Positions 4,683 through 61,232 of a DNA stretch of 64,000 bases are shown here, piece after piece. A model generated the notes under the pieces. It saw nothing but the letters and a program-made list of their open reading frames with translations. It had not been told where the DNA came from and ran no database searches. Source of the DNA: Escherichia coli (GTDB taxonomy: Bacteria > Pseudomonadota > Gammaproteobacteria > Enterobacterales > Enterobacteriaceae). The stretch is from assembly GCF_044324875.1 (NCBI RefSeq), contig NZ_CP172185.1. One strand, 5' to 3'. The stretch's first letter is position 1, and each line of letters starts with the position of its first letter. Made by a program: the position numbers and the translations under genes.

Positions 4683-5548
4683 CAGAACGTAAGGTAAAGG
4701 GAGATGAAAAAGGCAATAGCAGAACTGAGTGACAGTGAAACCATTCTGGCGTACAGGGTTGGATGGTGAAACTGATAAAAAAACCCCTCTGAAAATTCTG
4801 TCAGAGGGGTGTAGTCAATAAGGGTGTCATATTCAACATGAAGATGTCTTCTGGGAATGTTTACATAGCAAATGCTTTCACTCCGGTAATTAATTTCCGT
4901 GATTAACTGCTTTCGATCAATAAAGGAATTGCAAAAGTGTGATCTTGTTCACGACATTGTGGATGATAATATGCCTGATGTCTGAATCCGGAAACAGTGA
5001 TCTGGCGGTTTCATGTGAAGTTGACGGATAAAAAATCCGCACGACCAGACAGACGTGCGGTTTACGAAATTCGTAACAAGAGGCTTTTCTACGGATCACG
5101 TGGTGCGTGCCACGTGAAATTTTTGTAGCGCAAAATGTGTGATGTGTAAATACAAGGAAGGAAAAAAGTTAAATCGGTGGAAGTCCATGCCTGCCACATG
5201 TATGTCTGCATTCCTCGTTTTGAACAGAATTCTCACCAGACATCGTGAATTTCTCATTCAATCATCAGAGATATTACCCAGGATTTTTATTGTTTTGTGA
5301 TAGCAGTACTTTAAATGTTCAGATGCTAAAATAAGCGCGCTTATTATAATTATAGTTATGATGTTTTATCTTTATGTATTTTAATGATTTTCTCGTCATT
5401 GCTTTTCTGCTGCTTAAATTGAGGGCGCATATTATACACAATAATATTCCTGGCATTATTAAATTAATAAAAGAGGATTCTTATCACTGTATTTTTGCTC
5501 CGCACTACCGTTCTGGCTGGTGAAGTAATAATACAGGAGAATAACAGA

Positions 5549-7096
5549 ATGCTTAAAAGACGTGATGCTTTTTTAAAGAAAAGCGCGCTGGCAGTGAGTG
5601 TGGCCCTGCTGCTCTCATCTCAGGCTCAGGCTCAGGATATTTTATTCGGACCGATTCAACCTGGCGAAGATAATAGCTTTCTTGTTGGAGATTCAGTAGC
5701 TGGCCGTTCGTCTGGTGACATAAGAAATGTATGGTTGGTGGGTGATAATTCTTTTTTATTAGACTCAAACAGGACTGTGCTTTTGGGGAATAATTCTGGT
5801 GTTGTGAGCTCTCCGGGAAGTGTGAGTCTGGGGCATGATGCACTTATTGCTGACTCTGAATGGGGGACTGTTGCAGGAAAAGAAGCGTCACTTATTTCTT
5901 CTCGTCAGAGCTCGGCAATTGGTGCGTTTTCATCTGTGCAGGATTCTACCAGTTCTGTAGCTCTGGGCCATGGCTCACAGGTGTCGGGAGAAAATAACGT
6001 GGTATCTGTTGGTGCCGGGCCTGAGGGATATGGAGAGAGTGTCAAAGGAGCACCGGAAACCCGCCGGATTATAAATGTGTCTGATGGTATCAATAACACA
6101 GATGCAGCGACGGTAGGGCAACTGAATGAACGATTTGATGATGCACAGGTCTTTTTGTTGCAGACGAATGAAAGAATTGACGAGACAGATAAACGTCTTT
6201 CAACAGTTCATGCTGAACTCAGCAGGGATATTATTGCAGGCACATCGGCAGCGGTGACGTATACAGATGTAACAGCGCTTGCACTTCAGGATGAGATAAA
6301 GGATGGGACGAACAAAGTACGTGATGAGTTGAAATCACAGGGAGACAGTCTGCGTGGTGAGATAGGCGGTGTATACAGAGATGCCCGTGCTCATACTGAC
6401 AGTCAGGTCACAGCAGTACGTGATGAACTGAAGGCAGAGGGAGACAGTCTGCGCGGTGAGATAGGCGGTGTATACAGAGATGCCCGTGCTCATACTGACA
6501 GTCAGGTTACAGCAGTACGTGATGAACTCAGCAGGGATATTATTGCAGGCACATCGGCAGCGGTGGCGTATACGGATGCATCTTCTCTTGCTCTTCAGGA
6601 TGAAATAAAAGAAAAAGCGGATGAAACAGTTCAGGTTTCCCGGGCTTATACAGATAAAAGTGTACGGGATGCCCGTAAAGAAGCGAAAAGCCAGGCAGAA
6701 CATCTCAGCGATGTGCTTGTGAAGAACAGGGCGCAGACGGATGCAGCAATAGCCTCAAATACAGCAGCGATAAGGAATAACAGTCATCGTCTGGATTTGA
6801 CGGAAGCCTGGCAGAAGATGGCGACAGAGAGAATGAATAATATGCAGGAGCAGATTAAAGAGAACCGGAAGGAGTTAAGGGAGAGTGCAGCCCAGAGCGC
6901 GGCACTGGCAGGTCTTTTCCAGCCATACAGTGTTGGAAAATTTAACGCGACAGCAGCCGTTGGTGGTTACCGTGATGAGCAGGCCATTGCGGTGGGCGTG
7001 GGCTACCGTTTCACAGAGAATGTGGCAGGAAAAGTTGCAGTTGCTGCAGGTGGGTCATCCGCATCGTGGAATGCTGGTGTGAATTTTGAGTTCTGA
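5549..7096 (+). CDS. Trimeric autotransporter adhesin (YadA-like C-terminal anchor) with internal repeats
   Basis: Signal peptide [28 protein letters not shown] after a GGAGA ribosome-binding site. Coiled-coil stalk with repeats. C-terminal membrane anchor …[19 protein letters not shown]…GVNFEF. The ORF track starts 18 codons upstream at 5495. Confidence 0.75.
6320..6517. repeat. Two near-identical 99-bp in-frame tandem repeats inside the adhesin gene
   Basis: GGAGACAGTCTGCG(T/C)GGTGAGATAGGCGGTGTATACAGAGATGCCCGTGCTCATACTGACAGTCAGGT… recurs with 99-bp period (encoding [30 protein letters not shown] twice). A second repeat pair (…[13 protein letters not shown]…LALQDEIK) brackets them. Confidence 0.85.
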
Positions 7097-19553: not shown

Positions 19554-20438
19554 TCAGGCTTTTCCCGTGGATTGCGACAGATAGTTCCCCTTCAGCAACT
19601 TCTCAATGATGACCATCAGGATGACATTGGGGATCACCAGAATCATCGACACCACCGCCGCATCCGGGCGGACGAAGGAGTAGCCAAGGAAAGAGTAAAG
19701 AATGGTCGGAACGGTGATAAAGTCCGGCGCGCCCAGCACGTATGAGATGCTGAACTCTTCCAGGCTTCGCACCAGACAAAAAATCAGCGCCGCCAGGAAG
19801 CTCGGTTTCAGCAGCGGCAGATAGGCATTGCAGAAGGTGTCCCACGCGCCGGAGCCCAGGTCGCGGCTGGCGTCGATCAGATCCTGCGGCACCGACTTAA
19901 ACCCCGCAGACATAATGCGGATCGAATAGGGCAGCGTCAGTACCGTATGGCCGATAACAATGCTGATAAACGCGTTGTCGATATTGAGGTTGATCAGCAT
20001 GGCGCTGAAAAAAATCCCGATCAGCATCCCCGGCATCACCAGCGGGATCAGCGTCAGCATCTCCGCCACCGCCTTACCGCGAAAGGTCATGCGCCCGAAG
20101 GCATACGCGGTGGGTAGCGACAGCAGCAGGCTGGCGACCGCTACCGCAGGCGCAATGGTGTAGCTGTTGAACAGCGCCTCGGAAAGCGAAGTCTTTTCCC
20201 ATACCAGCAGCCAGCGGCTGAACGACAGCACGGGCGGGAAGATATCCGGGTAGCTCCACGGATGGGCCGGGTCAACCAGCGACCAGAGGATCGCCATGCC
20301 GAACGGCATGCCCAGCCAGATCAGATTAGCGACCACGAAGAAGATCAGCGAAATCGTCACCACCCGGCAACCGTTGGCAGTGTGGCTCATTTGACCTCTC
20401 CTTTGCGGGTGGCGAACGGGGTAATCAGTGTGGCTCAT
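19554..20438 (-). CDS. ABC transporter permease (second permease); N-terminus carries a 16-aa duplication
   Basis: 294 aa; MSHTDYPVRHPQRRGQ-MSHTANGC…; the second Met is likely the ancestral start. Start overlaps upstream stop. Confidence 0.75.
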   Translation of the reverse strand: MSHTDYPVRHPQRRGQMSHTANGCRVVTISLIFFVVANLIWLGMPFGMAILWSLVDPAHPWSYPDIFPPVLSFSRWLLVWEKTSLSEALFNSYTIAPAVAVASLLLSLPTAYAFGRMTFRGKAVAEMLTLIPLVMPGMLIGIFFSAMLINLNIDNAFISIVIGHTVLTLPYSIRIMSAGFKSVPQDLIDASRDLGSGAWDTFCNAYLPLLKPSFLAALIFCLVRSLEEFSISYVLGAPDFITVPTILYSFLGYSFVRPDAAVVSMILVIPNVILMVIIEKLLKGNYLSQSTGKA

Positions 20439-20476
20439 TTGACCTCTCCTTTGCGGGTGGCGAACGGGGTAATCAG
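20381..20476. repeat. Perfect 48-bp tandem duplication across the permease-permease gene junction
   Basis: TGTGGCTCATTTGACCTCTCCTTTGCGGGTGGCGAACGGGGTAATCAG occurs twice in tandem (20381-20428, 20429-20476), bounded by the short direct repeat CAGTGTGGC. Confidence 0.9.
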
Positions 20477-52327: not shown

Positions 52328-54954
<2,627 letters not shown>

Positions 54955-54991
54955 GATAAATCCTCTGTGAAAGTGGGTTGAGGTGATGAGG

Positions 54992-55648
54992 TCAGCTGAA
55001 ATGATGTCCGGCTGCGGTGAAGGTGTATCCGTTGATGAGAAGCGCCTCATCCACGGCGTCGTCTGAGGTCAGCCAGTCGTACTCGTTTTCCAGTTGACTG
55101 TATAACCAGAAGGCCAGGTCCCGCAGGGCGTCACAGACAACGGTTTCTGCATCGGCTGTCATTGCCTGTCCGGTCGGACTGTTCCGGGTAACAGTGATAT
55201 CCATGCTGTACGGATGGCAGTAGTGTCCCCGGTGACTGATTTCAGCCTGTAACTGCCGGAAGTTACGTTTCTGCACCGCCTGCAGGGCATCCGCGATACG
55301 ATGAAGTTCATGGTCCTGCGGGGCATATTCCCGGATTTTCCTGGCTGTTGCCGGCTGCCAGTGCCAGCGTCCTTCAAAACAGGCTCCGTCCCCCTGGCTG
55401 CAGAATCCGCTGAACCAGATACACGGCTCTTCCATAAACCTGCCGCTGCTGAGCCGGATAACTCGCTGGCGGAGGACAATCCCGACAATCTCACAGACCG
55501 CCCTGAAGTCTTCATACACGTTTTCATACCAGCTGCTGTCAGCATGATGCTGACGGTACCAGTCACGGGCTTTTTCCCGTGCTGTGGCGGAAAGTTCATC
55601 CGGCGTATACACGGTGGTGGTGATAATTCTGCTCATCCGCATCTCCAC
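54992..55648 (-). CDS. Hypothetical protein (218 aa) between the DUF987 gene and cbeA
   Basis: Cys/His/Trp-rich (…CIWFSGFCSQGDGACFEGRWHW…, …HRGHYCHPY…); not part of the module as I recall it from E. coli K-12. Confidence 0.5.
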   Translation of the reverse strand: MEMRMSRIITTTVYTPDELSATAREKARDWYRQHHADSSWYENVYEDFRAVCEIVGIVLRQRVIRLSSGRFMEEPCIWFSGFCSQGDGACFEGRWHWQPATARKIREYAPQDHELHRIADALQAVQKRNFRQLQAEISHRGHYCHPYSMDITVTRNSPTGQAMTADAETVVCDALRDLAFWLYSQLENEYDWLTSDDAVDEALLINGYTFTAAGHHFS

Positions 55649-55652
55649 TGAC

Positions 55653-55889
55653 TCAGTTCAGGGTGACGCTCATCAGCCGGACATACGGGCCAAAACTGTC
55701 CTTGCGGCGTTCGGCAAACACGGCCAGTACGCCGGGGATATCCTGTACTTCACGACCGGTATACGCCTCAGTGCCGCCGTGCCAGCGGTACTTACCGGTG
55801 CAGAACGGAAAAAGACGGGATGACGGATACTGACGGTGAACGCGCATGGCTTCACCACGGGTGACGATTTTCATAGTGTGATACCTCAT
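55653..55889 (-). CDS. DUF987 (YeeT-like) protein
   Basis: …MKIVTRGEAMRVHRQYPSSRLFPFCTGKYRWHGGTEAYTGREVQDIPGVLAVFAERRKD…. Confidence 0.7.
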   Translation of the reverse strand: MRYHTMKIVTRGEAMRVHRQYPSSRLFPFCTGKYRWHGGTEAYTGREVQDIPGVLAVFAERRKDSFGPYVRLMSVTLN

Positions 55890-55958
55890 GAGGATGAGAG
55901 AGAGTAAAGGGCCGGATGACGATGACAGATATGTGGTTTGCTGTGATTTGTCGCAGAA

Positions 55959-56477
55959 TTAAAGCAGGCCGTGTTCGGCAAAGGAGAACACCCGGCTGCC
56001 ACCGACTATCAGATGGTCCGGTACCCGGATATCCACCAGGGCCAGTGCCTGTACCAGCCGTTCCGTGATAAGCCGGTCAGCCTTACCGGGTGTGACTTCA
56101 CCGGACGGATGATTGTGCGCCAGCACCACGGCAGCGGCATTGTGGTACAGGGCGCGTTTAACCACCTCCCGGGGATGGACTTCCGTGCGGTTGATGGTGC
56201 CGGTGAAGAGGGTTTCACCGGCAATCAGCTGATTCTGGTTGTTCAGGTACAGCACCCGGAACTCTTCCCGCTCCAGTCCTGCCATGTGCAGAATCAGCCA
56301 TTCCCGTGCCGCATGCGTGGAGGTGAAGGCCACACCGGGTTCATGAAGATGGCGGTCCAGGGTTTTCAGGGCACGCTGAATGAGACTGCGCTCGCCGGGC
56401 GTCATCGCGCCGGGCAGAAAGGAAATCTGTTGCATAACCTCACCCCTCAGTCGATGATGCGAATAATGGCGCTGCAT
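55959..56477 (-). CDS. RadC-like JAB-domain protein (YeeS/YfjY-like)
   Basis: …VVLAHNHPSGEVTPGKADRLITERL… (JAMM metalloprotease-like HxHPSG motif). Confidence 0.8.
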   Translation of the reverse strand: MQRHYSHHRLRGEVMQQISFLPGAMTPGERSLIQRALKTLDRHLHEPGVAFTSTHAAREWLILHMAGLEREEFRVLYLNNQNQLIAGETLFTGTINRTEVHPREVVKRALYHNAAAVVLAHNHPSGEVTPGKADRLITERLVQALALVDIRVPDHLIVGGSRVFSFAEHGLL

Positions 56478-56920
56478 TCCGGATGCTGCAGGGCGTAATC
56501 CCGCAGCCGGTAATAATGGACCGTCATGGCATAATGCTCCGTACTGCAGGCGTGATGACTGTAGGCCATCAGACAGGCGGCAATGCCGGCGGCTTCCGGG
56601 CTCATTTCCGCGCGGTTACCGTTCATGGCGTTAAACAGCACCCATTTTTCGTCATCATCGTCACCCGGTTCGGGAGCCATAAATGCGCCGCCGTTGTTCA
56701 GGGTGTACATATTCCAGATACCCCCACTGTAGTCTTCACACAGACGGTCCATCCAGCCGAAGACACGGGGCTCCAGGGTCACCCACTGCGGAATGAGGCC
56801 AAAATGCTGCGGCCAGAAGCTGATGCGCTGTTCGTCAGGCACCGTGGTGGCAACCAGCTGAGGTGTATTATTCCCGGATGCAGTGGCTGCGGAAACAGAG
56901 TCATGCGAAACCGTTTTCAT
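56447..56920 (-). CDS. Antirestriction protein (ArdB/KlcA-like)
   Basis: 157 aa; acidic, …NMYTLNNGGAFMAPEPGDDDDEKWVLFNAMNGNRAEMSPEAAGIAACLMAYSH…. Confidence 0.75.
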   Translation of the reverse strand: MKTVSHDSVSAATASGNNTPQLVATTVPDEQRISFWPQHFGLIPQWVTLEPRVFGWMDRLCEDYSGGIWNMYTLNNGGAFMAPEPGDDDDEKWVLFNAMNGNRAEMSPEAAGIAACLMAYSHHACSTEHYAMTVHYYRLRDYALQHPECSAIIRIID

Positions 56921-56933
56921 AAGTGAAATCCTT

Positions 56934-56973
56934 AAGTGAATAAGTGAATAAGTGAATAAGTGAATAAGTGAAT
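56934..56973. repeat. Octanucleotide tandem repeat (AAGTGAAT)x5 in the 5' leader of the antirestriction gene
   Basis: Five perfect 8-bp units at 56934-56973; the start codon is at 56918-56920 with AGGA between repeat and ATG on the minus strand. Confidence 0.9.
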
Positions 56974-57013
56974 AGATAAGAGAGAAAAGGCTGCGCCTCT
57001 CAGGCAGAAGGCA

Positions 57014-57832
57014 TCAGCGCATACTCACCAGCAGCGTTTCCGCCATCACCCACAATGCACGATTGAGCTTAATGTCGGTGTCGATACTGTGAATGGCCCG
57101 GGTGTGGATACGTTTTCCTTTTGCGCTGCGTCCCTGAAGACCGCCTTTGAGCATATTCTCCTGGATGGTCTGATAAGCACTCCACAGGTCCCTGCCGTAA
57201 TCCTCCCGGCGTCGTGGTGTCAGAATGTCGGCGGTGGTGACGGGCTGATGTTCGTCACCATAACGGTAAGTCAGTGCCGCCTGTGCCAGCGCCTGACGAG
57301 CCGGTGGTGGTAAAATCAGCGACTGCATGGCATCACGCTTCTCCTCAATCCGGTCAAACACGCCCACAACCTCGTAAGCCCCTTCGATGACCCTGTCCAC
57401 CACGTTTCCCCGGTGCGGGACACGCACCTCTCCGAGAGACTGACCACAGACACATCCGTTCTGACACACGAACCGGAAGTAACCCGGCAGCATCTGGTAG
57501 CTGGAGGTACCGTCATGGGAGTTCAGCAGGATGATTTCAGGAACGTGCTGTCCGTTTATCTCCCCGTCACGGCGCAGACGCAGCATGTGCTTTGTGTATC
57601 CCCGGCGTCCCGGGTCACGCACGCGGGTCTGGCAGGCAAAGAACGGCTGAAAGCCTTCCCGCTGCAGGCTTTCCAGTACGGTGATGGTGGGGATGTATGT
57701 ATAGTTCCGGCTCCGGGAGGTGTGCTTATCTTCCCCGAAAATCCCGGGCACATGGTGCATCAGCTCTTCACGGGTCAGCGGACGGTCACGGCGTATCTGG
57801 TTCGCATAACCGAAACGACTGGCTAATCGCAT
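57014..57832 (-). CDS. DUF932 (YfjQ-like) protein
   Basis: 272 aa; conserved island-module neighbour of the GTPase gene. Confidence 0.65.
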   Translation of the reverse strand: MRLASRFGYANQIRRDRPLTREELMHHVPGIFGEDKHTSRSRNYTYIPTITVLESLQREGFQPFFACQTRVRDPGRRGYTKHMLRLRRDGEINGQHVPEIILLNSHDGTSSYQMLPGYFRFVCQNGCVCGQSLGEVRVPHRGNVVDRVIEGAYEVVGVFDRIEEKRDAMQSLILPPPARQALAQAALTYRYGDEHQPVTTADILTPRRREDYGRDLWSAYQTIQENMLKGGLQGRSAKGKRIHTRAIHSIDTDIKLNRALWVMAETLLVSMR

Positions 57833-58016
57833 ACTTTGCTCCTTATCGGTGGTTAATATTTACTGATGTAATAAATGAAAAAGCCGCGTCTCCCGGGGAA
57901 GACGCGCCTGATGGATGAAATGAATGAGGGTTTACCGAAGTCCTTCAGCATTGAGGTGAAGCAGCCGGAAAGGTGTTACCTGGTCATCGACGGGTCAGGT
58001 CAAAAAGCGGGGACAT

Positions 58017-58901
58017 TCAGAACAGGCGATCCCACAGTGTGACCAGCAGGCGGATAATGCGATCACGGGCTTTGCGCAGAAGCTGCAGCATCCATGCCGG
58101 AAAGCTGAACCGGGCAATGGCCGCGTCAAAGCTCTGGCCGATGGCGTCACCAAAAGCCTGCTGTGCGTGTTGCTGATCCTGCGCAGTGCGCTTTTCATTC
58201 CGGATATGCGAATAAACCGCGCTGGTTGCCTGTGGTGGCAGGGCGTGGATCATCAGAGACACAAATGCCGGAAGATTCCAGCCGGCAGGAGCGGCTATGG
58301 GGAGTACCGGAAATGATGAAGGGAACAGGGTTGCCACCCGGGCTGTCACCGTCGCCAGTGAGAGTTCCTGCTGACGGGATGGCGTGCTGCTCTGGTTGTT
58401 CCATTCTTCAGCCGGGTGGATGCGATCGGCATGGCTGAGAACAAACAGAAAACGCGAGGGATCGGCACCTTCATTCAGTAAAAACTGATGCATGGCAATA
58501 TCGGCAGCATACGCACGTTCATCAGCCCGCAGGATCCAGATAATCAGATCCAGTTCGGGTAGTAACTGACGGTAAAGTGCCCGGTATTCCTGATCATGCT
58601 GTGGTGTTTCGCCAGTGCCGGGCAGATCGACGAGCGTCATTCTGCGTTCACCGGGCTGAAAGGTAAGACGATGAGCCTGACGGGTGCAGCCGTTCAGCGG
58701 ATGCGTGGCGCAGACACGGGACTGAAAAATGGCATTGCACAGGCTGCTTTTTCCGGCACCGGATTTACCCATAATGCCAATAACGGGTTCGTAATGAATG
58801 ACGCTGTGAAGATGTTCAAGGATTTTCTGGCGTATTTCTTCAGGAAGAAAGGTCAGATGTGACTTTACGTGTGCGGAAAGGGAAGAATGGCTGAATGACA
58901 T
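58017..58901 (-). CDS. YeeP/YfjP-family GTPase
   Basis: G1 motif GIMGKSGAGKSSLCNAIF, G3 …DLPGTGE…; typical first conserved gene of CP4-like modules. Confidence 0.85.
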   Translation of the reverse strand: MSFSHSSLSAHVKSHLTFLPEEIRQKILEHLHSVIHYEPVIGIMGKSGAGKSSLCNAIFQSRVCATHPLNGCTRQAHRLTFQPGERRMTLVDLPGTGETPQHDQEYRALYRQLLPELDLIIWILRADERAYAADIAMHQFLLNEGADPSRFLFVLSHADRIHPAEEWNNQSSTPSRQQELSLATVTARVATLFPSSFPVLPIAAPAGWNLPAFVSLMIHALPPQATSAVYSHIRNEKRTAQDQQHAQQAFGDAIGQSFDAAIARFSFPAWMLQLLRKARDRIIRLLVTLWDRLF

Positions 58902-59006
58902 ACCGGTATCCTGTTGATTTCACTGAACCGGATCACATTAATCCGGTCTCTCAGTCAGGTAATATGGACGTGAAAAAATCTGGAGTGATAAAGTGTGGGA
59001 GGTGAG

Positions 59007-59960
59007 ATGACGGCACAACAAAGTGATGCGCTGCGTGAGATTGCTAATAAAGCCAGAGTTACCACCATTCTTCAGAGTAAGGTCTGGAAAGATACCCAGC
59101 GAATACTGAAGCGCAGCGGACTCGTGTACGGAAAACGGTCAGAGCCGTTTGATCCGGAGAAACATTTTGACCTTCAAACGGTGCGTTATCTGTATCAGCT
59201 TAACATGATGGCACTTGAGTTAAGGGAAGACACACAGATTGAGGTTGAGGTGGGCCACTGGCATCGCATGACAGGTCAATGTTTATCAATTCGTGTCCCG
59301 CCTTTTATGCTGATCCCGCGTCATATCCGGAGAAAAGTGGATGGATTCAGACAATCAGAAGGTAAAACAACAAAAAAACCGACTCAACCGTTCACGGGCA
59401 GTTTGTATAAGATTTTGCTCAGGGATATTGACCCGGATAAGCTGGATGCATGGTTTGCTGAACCGCCGATGACATGGCAGGAAGTGCTGGAGGGGAGGCG
59501 TGTCACTGATTTTAATCCATGGGCTCTGTCTTCGCCTATTTGCCGTTCAGCATCCCCGACGTTTGAACTTTTTTACCAGGAATATAAGCGACTGGGATTA
59601 AAATCTCTTTTTGTATCAGGGGTAATGTTTGAACAATTTTTAACAAAACTGAATGTCAGAAAACATGAGTACGGGGTTGAATCGCAGTTACTGGAATCAC
59701 TGGGAAATGTGATGTTTTTCATGTTGCTTTATGACATTGAAAATATGGCAAGGTTTACAGAAGCACTTATGAACATTAATGAGCAAAGTGGACATTCGAA
59801 GGGAAAAGGGAAAACGCGAACAGAGATAATGCTGGAATATATCAATTCATATATCCTCGATGTTCATGAAAACTTCCTTTGTTCTTCAAAAGAAAGGTAC
59901 GAACAGCATAAACGCAAAAACAGCAGTAAAAAGAAAAACGGTTCTGGTGGAACGCATTAA
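59007..59960 (+). CDS. Hypothetical protein (about 317 aa), low GC
   Basis: Start at MTAQQSDALREIANKARV…; Lys-rich C-terminal tail; no recognizable motif. Confidence 0.5.
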   Translation: MTAQQSDALREIANKARVTTILQSKVWKDTQRILKRSGLVYGKRSEPFDPEKHFDLQTVRYLYQLNMMALELREDTQIEVEVGHWHRMTGQCLSIRVPPFMLIPRHIRRKVDGFRQSEGKTTKKPTQPFTGSLYKILLRDIDPDKLDAWFAEPPMTWQEVLEGRRVTDFNPWALSSPICRSASPTFELFYQEYKRLGLKSLFVSGVMFEQFLTKLNVRKHEYGVESQLLESLGNVMFFMLLYDIENMARFTEALMNINEQSGHSKGKGKTRTEIMLEYINSYILDVHENFLCSSKERYEQHKRKNSSKKKNGSGGTH

Positions 59961-60904
59961 CGGGAATAATCCCCGGTTGTTTTCTGCATAAACAGACGAT
60001 CAGCTGATAAGATGAGTTTATCCAGTATTTCAGCCTGAGTAAGATTATTCTTTTTTGCCATTTTCCGGAGTATATTCCTGGCTTCCGGAGAAATCAGGGC
60101 ACTTATCTGTACCCGGCGATCCACTTTTTCATGCCGGAACATTTTCTGATAAGAATTTTTCATGCGTCTGATTAAATCATTCTGACGCTGAACAAGATCT
60201 TTCAGATGCTGGTGTTCAATAGTGGAAGGAAGTATATTAAAAAATACACAACGGACAGAAACTATTACGGCGAGACGGGCTTCTCTGTCGTTACAAGTTT
60301 TAAAATTCGGAAGAACAGGACAGTAATGAATGTTTCCAGAATTATGCATGCACAAATCAGAATCATGCCTGGACAAATATTCCCATGCCCATTTAATATG
60401 AATCCTTTGATGATCAAGCCATTTCATGGGATTCACTTTTTCAGCATACGACCATAAAAAACGAAGAGTAGACAAGAATTCCGAGACGGTTAGTGCGTCG
60501 ACAATTTTTCTGTACTCCTGGAGCCATTTATTTATCATAATAATCCGGGATTTATCATCACCAGGTAAAGAGTAATAACCAAACAACCTGGTATACAGGT
60601 TACTCTCGTTTTGAGACTGCTCCCAGGACAATGGAACTCGTGTGAAGTTGTCAGGAACATGAAATATAAACCACCATACCCAGAACGTGGCTACACGGTT
60701 GGTTTTTATCCAGTCCGGAACTGCTTCACTTTCTGAATTATCGGTCTCAACAACTCCTGATGTATTATCCGGATAATGCTCAGCCCCAAAAAAACCATCA
60801 ACAGGGTTATCTGGTGAATACACAGACATTAACTCCATGGGTATAAATGTATAGCCATCTAAAGAATCAAATCCTCTCTTACTTTCAACTCCTCTGTAAG
60901 TCAA
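59957..60904 (-). CDS. Hypothetical protein (about 293-315 aa), low GC, with C-terminal RHH/HTH-like segment
   Basis: C-terminus …ISPEARNILRKMAKKNNLTQAEILDKLILSADRLF…; Trp-rich central region; 3' end overlaps the convergent neighbour by 4 nt. Confidence 0.5.
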   Translation of the reverse strand: MTYRGVESKRGFDSLDGYTFIPMELMSVYSPDNPVDGFFGAEHYPDNTSGVVETDNSESEAVPDWIKTNRVATFWVWWFIFHVPDNFTRVPLSWEQSQNESNLYTRLFGYYSLPGDDKSRIIMINKWLQEYRKIVDALTVSEFLSTLRFLWSYAEKVNPMKWLDHQRIHIKWAWEYLSRHDSDLCMHNSGNIHYCPVLPNFKTCNDREARLAVIVSVRCVFFNILPSTIEHQHLKDLVQRQNDLIRRMKNSYQKMFRHEKVDRRVQISALISPEARNILRKMAKKNNLTQAEILDKLILSADRLFMQKTTGDYSR

Positions 60905-61232
60905 TTCTATCTGAATTCTCTTTTAACGACACATCAGAAAAAATGCAACACCCACATTGGTGATTTTCATTTGCTTACAAAACCATACTTTAAATTACAA
61001 ACAAATAATACACACACCTCGGATAAAATCACGTCGAAATTTAATTATTTTAAATAAATAATGCATTAAAAATATCCATAAATTATCCAGCTGAATATTT
61101 TTTATATGAAAAACATGCTGTCGTTCGTTGTCTTGCGTATTCCGCTCTATTCGATCACGGATTGGCATCGAAGTCCGATCAGCGATTCGCATCCATTCGA
61201 TCAACCGGGAACTTAACTTTTTCTACCGCTTT

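Follow-up and report, generated by a model that had tools for sequence, protein, structure and literature searches.

A polymorphic octanucleotide tandem repeat in front of the klcA antirestriction gene in one lineage of Escherichia coli islands

The klcA antirestriction gene of one uncommon lineage of CP4-type Escherichia coli islands is preceded by a perfect octanucleotide tandem array that differs by whole units between strains. The array is polymorphic, its instability depends on the purity of the repeat, and it is restricted to that single lineage. It is probably a lineage-specific, purity-dependent VNTR in the klcA leader that has no effect, or only a small graded effect, on expression. 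In the history that we propose, replication slippage would have enlarged an older, imperfect ATTC-type proto-repeat between the DUF932 gene and klcA into the octamer array, which would go on gaining and losing whole units as long as its copies are perfect. The array would lengthen a G-free, pyrimidine-rich, unstructured tract 5' of the ribosome-binding site, where changes in unit number (n) within the range 3–9 would most likely either leave the expression of klcA and of the genes radC-DUF987-cbeA-cbtA 3' of it unchanged or alter it in a small, graded way. As far as predictions and comparisons indicate, the array is neither an on/off switch nor an operator. It represents a previously undescribed polymorphic marker that could help to subtype strains with a CP4-type island of this lineage, and it provides a clean natural example of purity-dependent instability, in which a perfect array ranges from 3 to 9 units and its interrupted sister is frozen.

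The array and its gene neighbourhood

Five perfect copies of AAGTGAAT occur on the plus strand of the window (the whole 64-kb stretch of E. coli DNA analysed here), as identified by an exact-match scan; on the coding (minus) strand the array reads (ATTCACTT)x5. Tandem Repeats Finder (TRF) places it at 56933-56974 with a period of 8, 5.2 copies, 100% matches and no indels. The array therefore has the three or more perfect head-to-tail copies that characterize a slippage-type VNTR or simple sequence repeat. Two adjacent units form a 16-mer with 4 matches against 0.02 expected from shuffled sequences, and this 16-mer has no further occurrence within the 64-kb window. The preliminary description of this DNA had reported five perfect tandem copies of an 8-bp unit directly 5' of the klcA ribosome-binding site, and it was right on both points, as the array adjoins AAGGA. 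The interval that it gave, 56921-57013, is the entire 93-bp intergenic region, of which the array occupies only a part (Table 1). Among its interpretations, copy-number variation by slippage agrees with the present results; effects on promoter spacing or leader structure and a regulator-binding array are not supported by them.

Table 1. Features of the klcA leader and its surroundings, with positions in the window
Feature	Position	Strand	Basis
Octanucleotide VNTR array	56934..56973	-	TRF, exact-match scan, copy number 3-9 in 19 assemblies
Shine-Dalgarno (SD) AAGGA of klcA, adjoining last unit	56929..56933	-	Read from sequence; 8 nt 5' of ATG
SD-to-ATG spacer TTTCACTT, 8 nt, a repeat unit with one mismatch	56921..56928	-	Read from sequence
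59-nt G-free tract (CCTTTTCTCTCTTATCT + array + AA), 78% pyrimidine	56932..56990	-	Unpaired in predicted folds
Interrupted 11-bp hairpin with DUF932 stop codon, then CUUUUCUCUCUU	56990..57018	-	RNA fold, stem at model positions 8-36
Promoter-like candidate TTCACA-16-TAAGCT inside DUF932 3' end	57066..57093	-	Weight matrix, 8.64
klcA/ardB-type antirestriction gene, 157 aa	56447..56920	-	Pfam PF03230 Antirestrict, E=1.8e-36
DUF932 gene, 272 aa, 5' of klcA	57014..57832	-	PF06067, E=1.7e-51
GTPase gene	58017-58901	-	Domain search
RadC, DUF987, CbeA antitoxin and CbtA toxin genes	3' of klcA	-	Domain search

In mRNA sense, the intergenic region begins at the UGA stop codon of the DUF932 gene and continues through the interrupted hairpin, CCTTTTCTCTCTTATCT, (ATTCACTT)x5, AAGGA and TTTCACTT to the klcA ATG at 56920-56918. 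The sequence TAAGGA is kept in every E. coli lineage aligned, and the spacer is identical in the lineages with perfect and with interrupted arrays. The PF03230 match of the klcA product covers the whole domain (profile positions 1-92 of 92), which makes the protein a member of the ArdB/KlcA family. An unassigned ORF is present between the DUF987 and CbeA genes. From the annotation of the best relative, these genes make up the distal module that is conserved among CP4-type islands of E. coli, and the same module of GTPase, DUF932, antirestriction, RadC, DUF987, CbeA antitoxin and CbtA toxin genes occurs in the K-12 prophages CP4-57 (yfjPQ and yfjX-yfjY-ypjJ-yfjZ-ypjF) and CP4-6 (yafX-ykfG-ykfH-yafW-ykfI). 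Unlike in the K-12 modules, klcA in the window lies directly 3' of DUF932. In K-12, the operon that closes with the toxin gene starts with the antirestriction gene, and the GTPase-DUF932 pair yfjP-yfjQ is a unit of its own (PMC3946193; PMC5371832).

The predicted fold of the intergenic region has an energy of -16.4 kcal/mol for the whole stretch, and a terminator consensus scan flags a site at 57001-56985 that overlaps the interrupted hairpin. The hairpin, which is situated just 5' of the array and is not kept in the sister lineage described below, is probably a weak terminator-like element. Terminator-like structures are also found elsewhere: in 11 of 35 klcA loci from other Enterobacterales (L033, L034, L036, L041, L042, L044, L056 and L059-L062; ~90 nt 5' of klcA), a strong terminator-like hairpin with a T-run ends 24–38 nt before the start codon. 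Almost no space remains there for a promoter, so klcA in those loci may need read-through, or the hairpin may serve as a 5' stabiliser or attenuator.

As a whole, the window is a mosaic island region of the E. coli chromosome. Its best matches come from isolates of avian and poultry origin, and its 64 kb contain no detected tRNA gene. Two IS21-family copies (32705-35250 and 61233-63765) encode a 548-aa Mu-transposase/rve protein and an IstB ATPase; the klcA module is bracketed by these copies and a separate IS21-like (ISEc12-type) element at 52394-54195. Each of the two copies ends in a degenerate 23-bp tandem repeat of ATGCCAAACCGTGATCGATTCG with ~4.3 copies (TRF 35139-35237 and 63667-63765), which probably represents multiple terminal transposase-binding repeats. 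Other tandem repeats in the window include a perfect 48-bp duplication at 20378-20482 (2.2 copies, 100%) over the junction of the overlapping minus-strand ORFs 19554-20438 and 20435-21301, and a 99-bp repeat at 6316-6528 (2.2 copies, 93%) that is in frame, with 33 codons per unit, in a gene for a YadA-like trimeric autotransporter adhesin (5495-7096). Further island regions at 27908-31732 and 39458-48093 carry an S6-peptidase (SPATE) autotransporter, PhoX, a phosphoethanolamine transferase and a P4-type integrase.

Copy number across islands and the origin of the array

Repeat units were counted in 19 E. coli assemblies, including the window itself, that were found through exact-protein look-ups with the window's KlcA, its DUF932 protein and one KlcA point variant. 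Five units predominate (9 assemblies), followed by three (4), four (3), six (2) and nine (1). The arrays are perfect in 19 of 19 assemblies, and the 30 nt on the 5' side and 16 nt on the 3' side are identical throughout. The preliminary description had proposed this comparison across homologous islands and had stated that a fixed repeat number would count against it; the observed range of 3–9 units is far from fixed. It had also suggested that copy number can vary by slipped-strand mispairing, and the variation occurs in whole units as slippage predicts, which is the mechanism that we infer.

Array length changes much faster than point substitutions accumulate, because different unit numbers occur between substitution-free flanks. 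Among seven loci whose flanks are free of substitutions over ~1.18 kb, the unit numbers are 3, 3, 3, 3, 4, 5 and 6; over 1439+1987 nt, the flanks of L012 (n=5), L014 (n=6) and L016 (n=5) do not differ by a single substitution. Alleles that differ by whole units within flanks identical over ~1.18–3.4 kb are characteristic of VNTR loci. The four n=3 alleles all have DUF905 upstream, and alleles in the GTPase context are mostly n=5. The array is thus unstable but not wildly so, and its alleles partly track lineage. No allele with fewer than three units occurs among the 19 assemblies, which hints that there could be a lower bound on unit number, in a sample that is small and partly lineage-tracking.

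The DUF932-klcA junction is matched in 4,316 of 5,426 complete E. coli genomes, at a median of 2 places per genome; a close relative of the window is present in only two of the 5,426, AR_0085 and LH50-c, each with 6 perfect units. The exact KlcA of the window is listed in 149 contigs or index blocks, and every named source is E. coli. Partial members of the KlcA cluster were considered as further sources of arrays and proved to be C-terminal fragments of other paralogues, and a search of metagenomes and viral contigs with the 3'-flank pattern found no extra alleles. AR_0085, the closest relative, also contains a perfect 12-bp repeat of TGTATCTGGCCT with 3.1 copies (L001 902-938) in a hypothetical gene 5' of the GTPase gene; this repeat is absent from the window.

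A sister lineage is commoner, with its exact KlcA in 1168 index blocks. Its DNA around the array is 88–91% identical to that of the window lineage (9–12% divergence), and its array is interrupted: ATTCACTT ATTC ATTCACTT ATTTCCTT A ATTCACTT GTTCACTT ATTCACTT AAGGA TTTCACTT ATG. This interrupted array does not vary in length among 10 complete genomes; another 9 sister loci, some of them in the same assemblies, have the same length and are one C/T SNP apart. Instability therefore depends on purity, as in other VNTRs: the interrupted sister array is stable and the perfect array varies. Despite the divergence, the sister leader keeps 6–7 recognizable ATTCACTT-like units beside the SD, a retention that selection, either on the motif or on the composition of the leader, could explain.

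More distant E. coli paralogues (78–80% identity), sampled from strains other than K-12, have only ATTCTTCCATTCATTTAC at the array position, which, judged from its sequence, is probably a two-unit imperfect proto-repeat. Three paralogue lineages of E. coli lack the octamer array, and the leaders of 35 klcA loci in other Enterobacterales are likewise without a tandem array. Convergent arrays in other klcA leaders were considered and rejected, since none was found in these 35 species-level loci or in the three paralogue lineages. The pattern (ATTCACTT)x3 matches at least 120 unrelated metagenomic contigs with unrelated flanks, which suggests that the octamer is a generic slippage product that carries no specific signal. 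Two contexts recur among these contigs, with the repeat followed by TTGACATTTGACATTTGACAT or by TGGACATTAAGG/TGGACATTAGC (L066 and L093, from rumen metagenomes, and L092, L119, L122, L129, L131, L126 and L135); they suggest a family of repeated sequences, regulatory or mobile, in an organism of the gut or rumen. The comparison of lineages suggests an ordinary microsatellite life cycle for the klcA array, in which birth from a proto-repeat would have been followed by expansion, by decay through interruption in one branch and by ongoing slippage.

The klcA array closely resembles bacterial intergenic VNTR and simple sequence repeat (SSR) loci used in MLVA typing, with which it shares perfect short units, whole-unit polymorphism, stabilization by interruption and an intergenic position. 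The difference is its restriction to a single, uncommon lineage of E. coli islands (149 versus 1168 index blocks). The literature searched mentions neither the repeat sequence nor any tandem repeat associated with klcA or with antirestriction genes.

Promoter, regulator and reading-frame explanations

Classical phase variation by promoter spacing would require that gain or loss of units shifts the spacing of -35 and -10 boxes, or the distance to an upstream element, and so turns klcA on or off. Such a switch could exploit the 8-bp steps in which n varies, and TTCACT within the array resembles a -35 box at four of six positions. However, a consensus scan finds no sigma-70 promoter in 56400-59100, and a weight-matrix scan, with matrices that are our own approximation, finds no -35/-10 pair separated by the array. 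The top weight-matrix match in the 330 nt 5' of klcA lies within the DUF932 gene (Table 1) and is not called by the stricter consensus scan. The sole array-related match, TTCACT-17-AAGGAT, scores 5.96, which is background level (135 matches score at least 6 in 20 kb), and it would start transcription 3' of the SD. Because the array is periodic, the internal -35/-10 spacing is constant and this match is unchanged at every n of at least 3. The earlier suggestion that copy number alters promoter spacing finds no support in these scans, and we regard a promoter-spacing switch as exceedingly unlikely.

With just 13 nt between the array and the ATG, any klcA promoter must lie within or 5' of the array; this gap is too small for a downstream promoter, and at least the 3' units would consequently belong to the klcA mRNA leader. 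With no downstream or spanning promoter predicted, the repeat may be placed between the transcription start and the start codon. Its predicted geometry, outside the ORF and splitting no promoter element, is not that of a phase-variable contingency locus. Contingency loci of Neisseria and Haemophilus, such as nadA with its TAAA repeat (PMC2791445), share with the klcA array a repeat that is prone to slippage and is situated close to the start of a gene for foreign-DNA or host interaction. In nadA-type loci, however, the repeat lies between or 5' of mapped promoter elements and changes their spacing (PMC2791445), whereas the klcA array splits no predicted element.

It has also been proposed, in the preliminary description, that the repeats are a binding array for a regulator. 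In an operator or iteron-like array, each ATTCACTT unit would bind a host or island regulator that controls klcA; direct repeats beside a gene start are a common operator layout, and the motif survives in degenerate form in the sister lineage. Several observations are difficult to reconcile with such a role. The 8-bp period places successive sites ~274 degrees apart on the helix, out of the phase expected of operators and iterons, and sister-lineage units are spaced irregularly at 12, 8, 9, 8 and 8 bp. The array has no inverted symmetry or dyads. The motif is not conserved in homologous control regions (0 of 3 E. coli paralogue lineages and 0 of 35 klcA leaders from other species), the number of sites is free to vary from 3 to 9, and the two-unit 16-mer does not recur outside the array within the window. 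A regulator-binding array is therefore very unlikely. To our knowledge, the unit also has no convincing match to consensus sites for CRP, IHF, RcsB, NarL, EvgA or OmpR/PhoB, or to sRNA seeds, a comparison to which we give no weight.

A further explanation is that the array is an assembly or sequencing artefact, or that it belongs to an unrecognized coding sequence in which length changes of 8 bp would alter the reading frame. All frames of the array are free of stop codons, and with n=5, as with every n that leaves a remainder of 2 on division by 3, the klcA ATG shares the frame of DUF932, from which it is separated by one UGA. Translation across the junction at n=5 gives ...SMR*CLLPERRSLFSLIYSLIHLFTYSLIHLRISLMKTVS, and over 56906-57025 on the minus strand the two genes are separated by that one UGA and 31 sense codons. 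The G-free tract, however, contains no ATG, GTG or TTG, and the sole upstream start opens a 4-codon ORF (by eye). A hidden coding or frame-shift switch was rejected on these grounds, and because the annotated ATG is preceded by a canonical SD at 8 nt; the KlcA N-terminus also aligns from residue 1 with its Escherichia albertii homologue. An artefact is opposed by array lengths of 24–72 bp, which are below sequencing-read length, and by the presence of whole perfect units in independent assemblies that include two complete genomes. The likelihood of an artefact or a hidden frame is practically negligible.

The leader tract and comparable repeat systems

The preliminary description had suggested that copy number could alter leader structure. 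Predicted RNA folds for n=0–12 all leave the array unpaired, and the energy needed to open the region from SD-2 to +15 rises only from 8.2 kcal/mol at n=0 to 9.6 at n=2 and 10.0–10.2 at n=5–12. Accessibility of the ribosome site is thus flat from n=2 (9.6–10.2 kcal/mol over n=2–12), and the small rise in opening energy is attributable to weak pairing of the unit (UC.CUUA) with the SD (UAAGGA). An RNA structural switch was rejected on this evidence, which leaves that suggestion unsupported by prediction. Folding of the array as single-stranded DNA gives no structure, and a search for Rfam families in 54000-61000 gives nothing relevant.

The 59-nt G-free tract is the longest run free of any single base on either strand of the 64-kb window. 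C makes up 27% of it, it has 10 YC dimers, and the C/G ratio over 78-nt windows reaches its maximum here, at 2.9. G-free, pyrimidine-rich RNA is favoured by ribosomal protein S1 and ribosome standby, and by Rho in untranslated gaps, and Rho silences horizontally acquired DNA in E. coli. Canonical rut sites are unstructured, untranslated RNA stretches of about 70–80 nt that are rich in C, poor in G and contain YC dimers; the present tract, at 59 nt with n=5, is shorter than this. Because S1 and Rho both prefer such a composition, unit number could matter quantitatively, and n might, as judged from composition, raise or lower expression in a graded manner by way of S1/standby binding or Rho loading.

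Consequently, the array might act as an expression rheostat in the mRNA leader, like AGAT(n) of Moraxella uspA2, in which n tunes klcA and the downstream toxin-antitoxin genes. In one version, more units would extend an S1/ribosome standby platform and increase translation; in the other, more units would make a better C-rich, G-free Rho loading site and increase premature termination and polarity. Such tuning would fit an array that is directly 5' of the SD in an unpaired, G-free, 78% pyrimidine tract, that varies from 3 to 9 units, and whose units pair weakly with the SD (opening energy of 8.2 kcal/mol at n=0 and 10.0 at n=5). The ATTCACTT-like units retained beside the SD in the sister lineage point the same way, as do the precedents of uspA2 AGAT(n), the Moraxella GACTGTTT octamer (PMC7302503) and TAACTGA heptamers (PMC4679880). 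Nevertheless, the predicted change in accessibility is below 0.6 kcal/mol over n=2–12 and would saturate below the observed range. Standby-site models saturate at ~12–20 nt of single strand, a length that the 17-nt CU tract plus one unit already reaches. Variability is not maintained in the sister lineage, where the interrupted array is fixed in length, and klcA leaders of other lineages and species work without an array. A rheostat is therefore a tentative possibility that we consider rather unlikely, and the VNTR described above, whose near-neutrality follows from predictions, is the more likely reading. Nothing found demands tuning of expression by n.

If n does tune klcA and the toxin-antitoxin operon, the array would be a rare case of repeat-based expression tuning in E. 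coli, on an anti-defence gene. SSR-based control is uncommon in E. coli. A more elaborate version, in which slippage changes Rho or S1 loading so that sibling cells differ in antirestriction and CbeA/CbtA levels as an island-borne form of bet-hedging, would be a contingency-type rheostat in this species and is improbable.

Precedents for a graded effect are known from Moraxella. In M. catarrhalis, uspA2 has 6–23 AGAT units in its 5' UTR (PMC4679880), and this heteropolymeric repeat 5' of the ORF tunes expression (PMC7302503); the GACTGTTT octamer occurs in 2–17 copies 25 bp 5' of the glutathione-disulfide reductase ORF (PMC7302503). Like the klcA array, these repeats are heteropolymeric, lie 5' of an ORF and have a strain-dependent n, and the Moraxella effect is graded rather than on/off. 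The dependence of uspA2 expression on n has been measured, whereas for klcA predictions indicate no dependence, and the range of 3–9 units is smaller. TAACTGA heptamers form direct repeats just 5' of SDs and start codons in Beggiatoaceae and cyanobacteria, and a translational role has been proposed for them (PMC4679880). They share with the klcA array a forward, heteropolymeric arrangement near the SD and start codon and whole-unit indels between close strains. The heptamers, however, are a genome-wide family at many loci (169 sets in one genome) that often replace the SD, whereas the klcA array occupies a single locus and adjoins a canonical SD.
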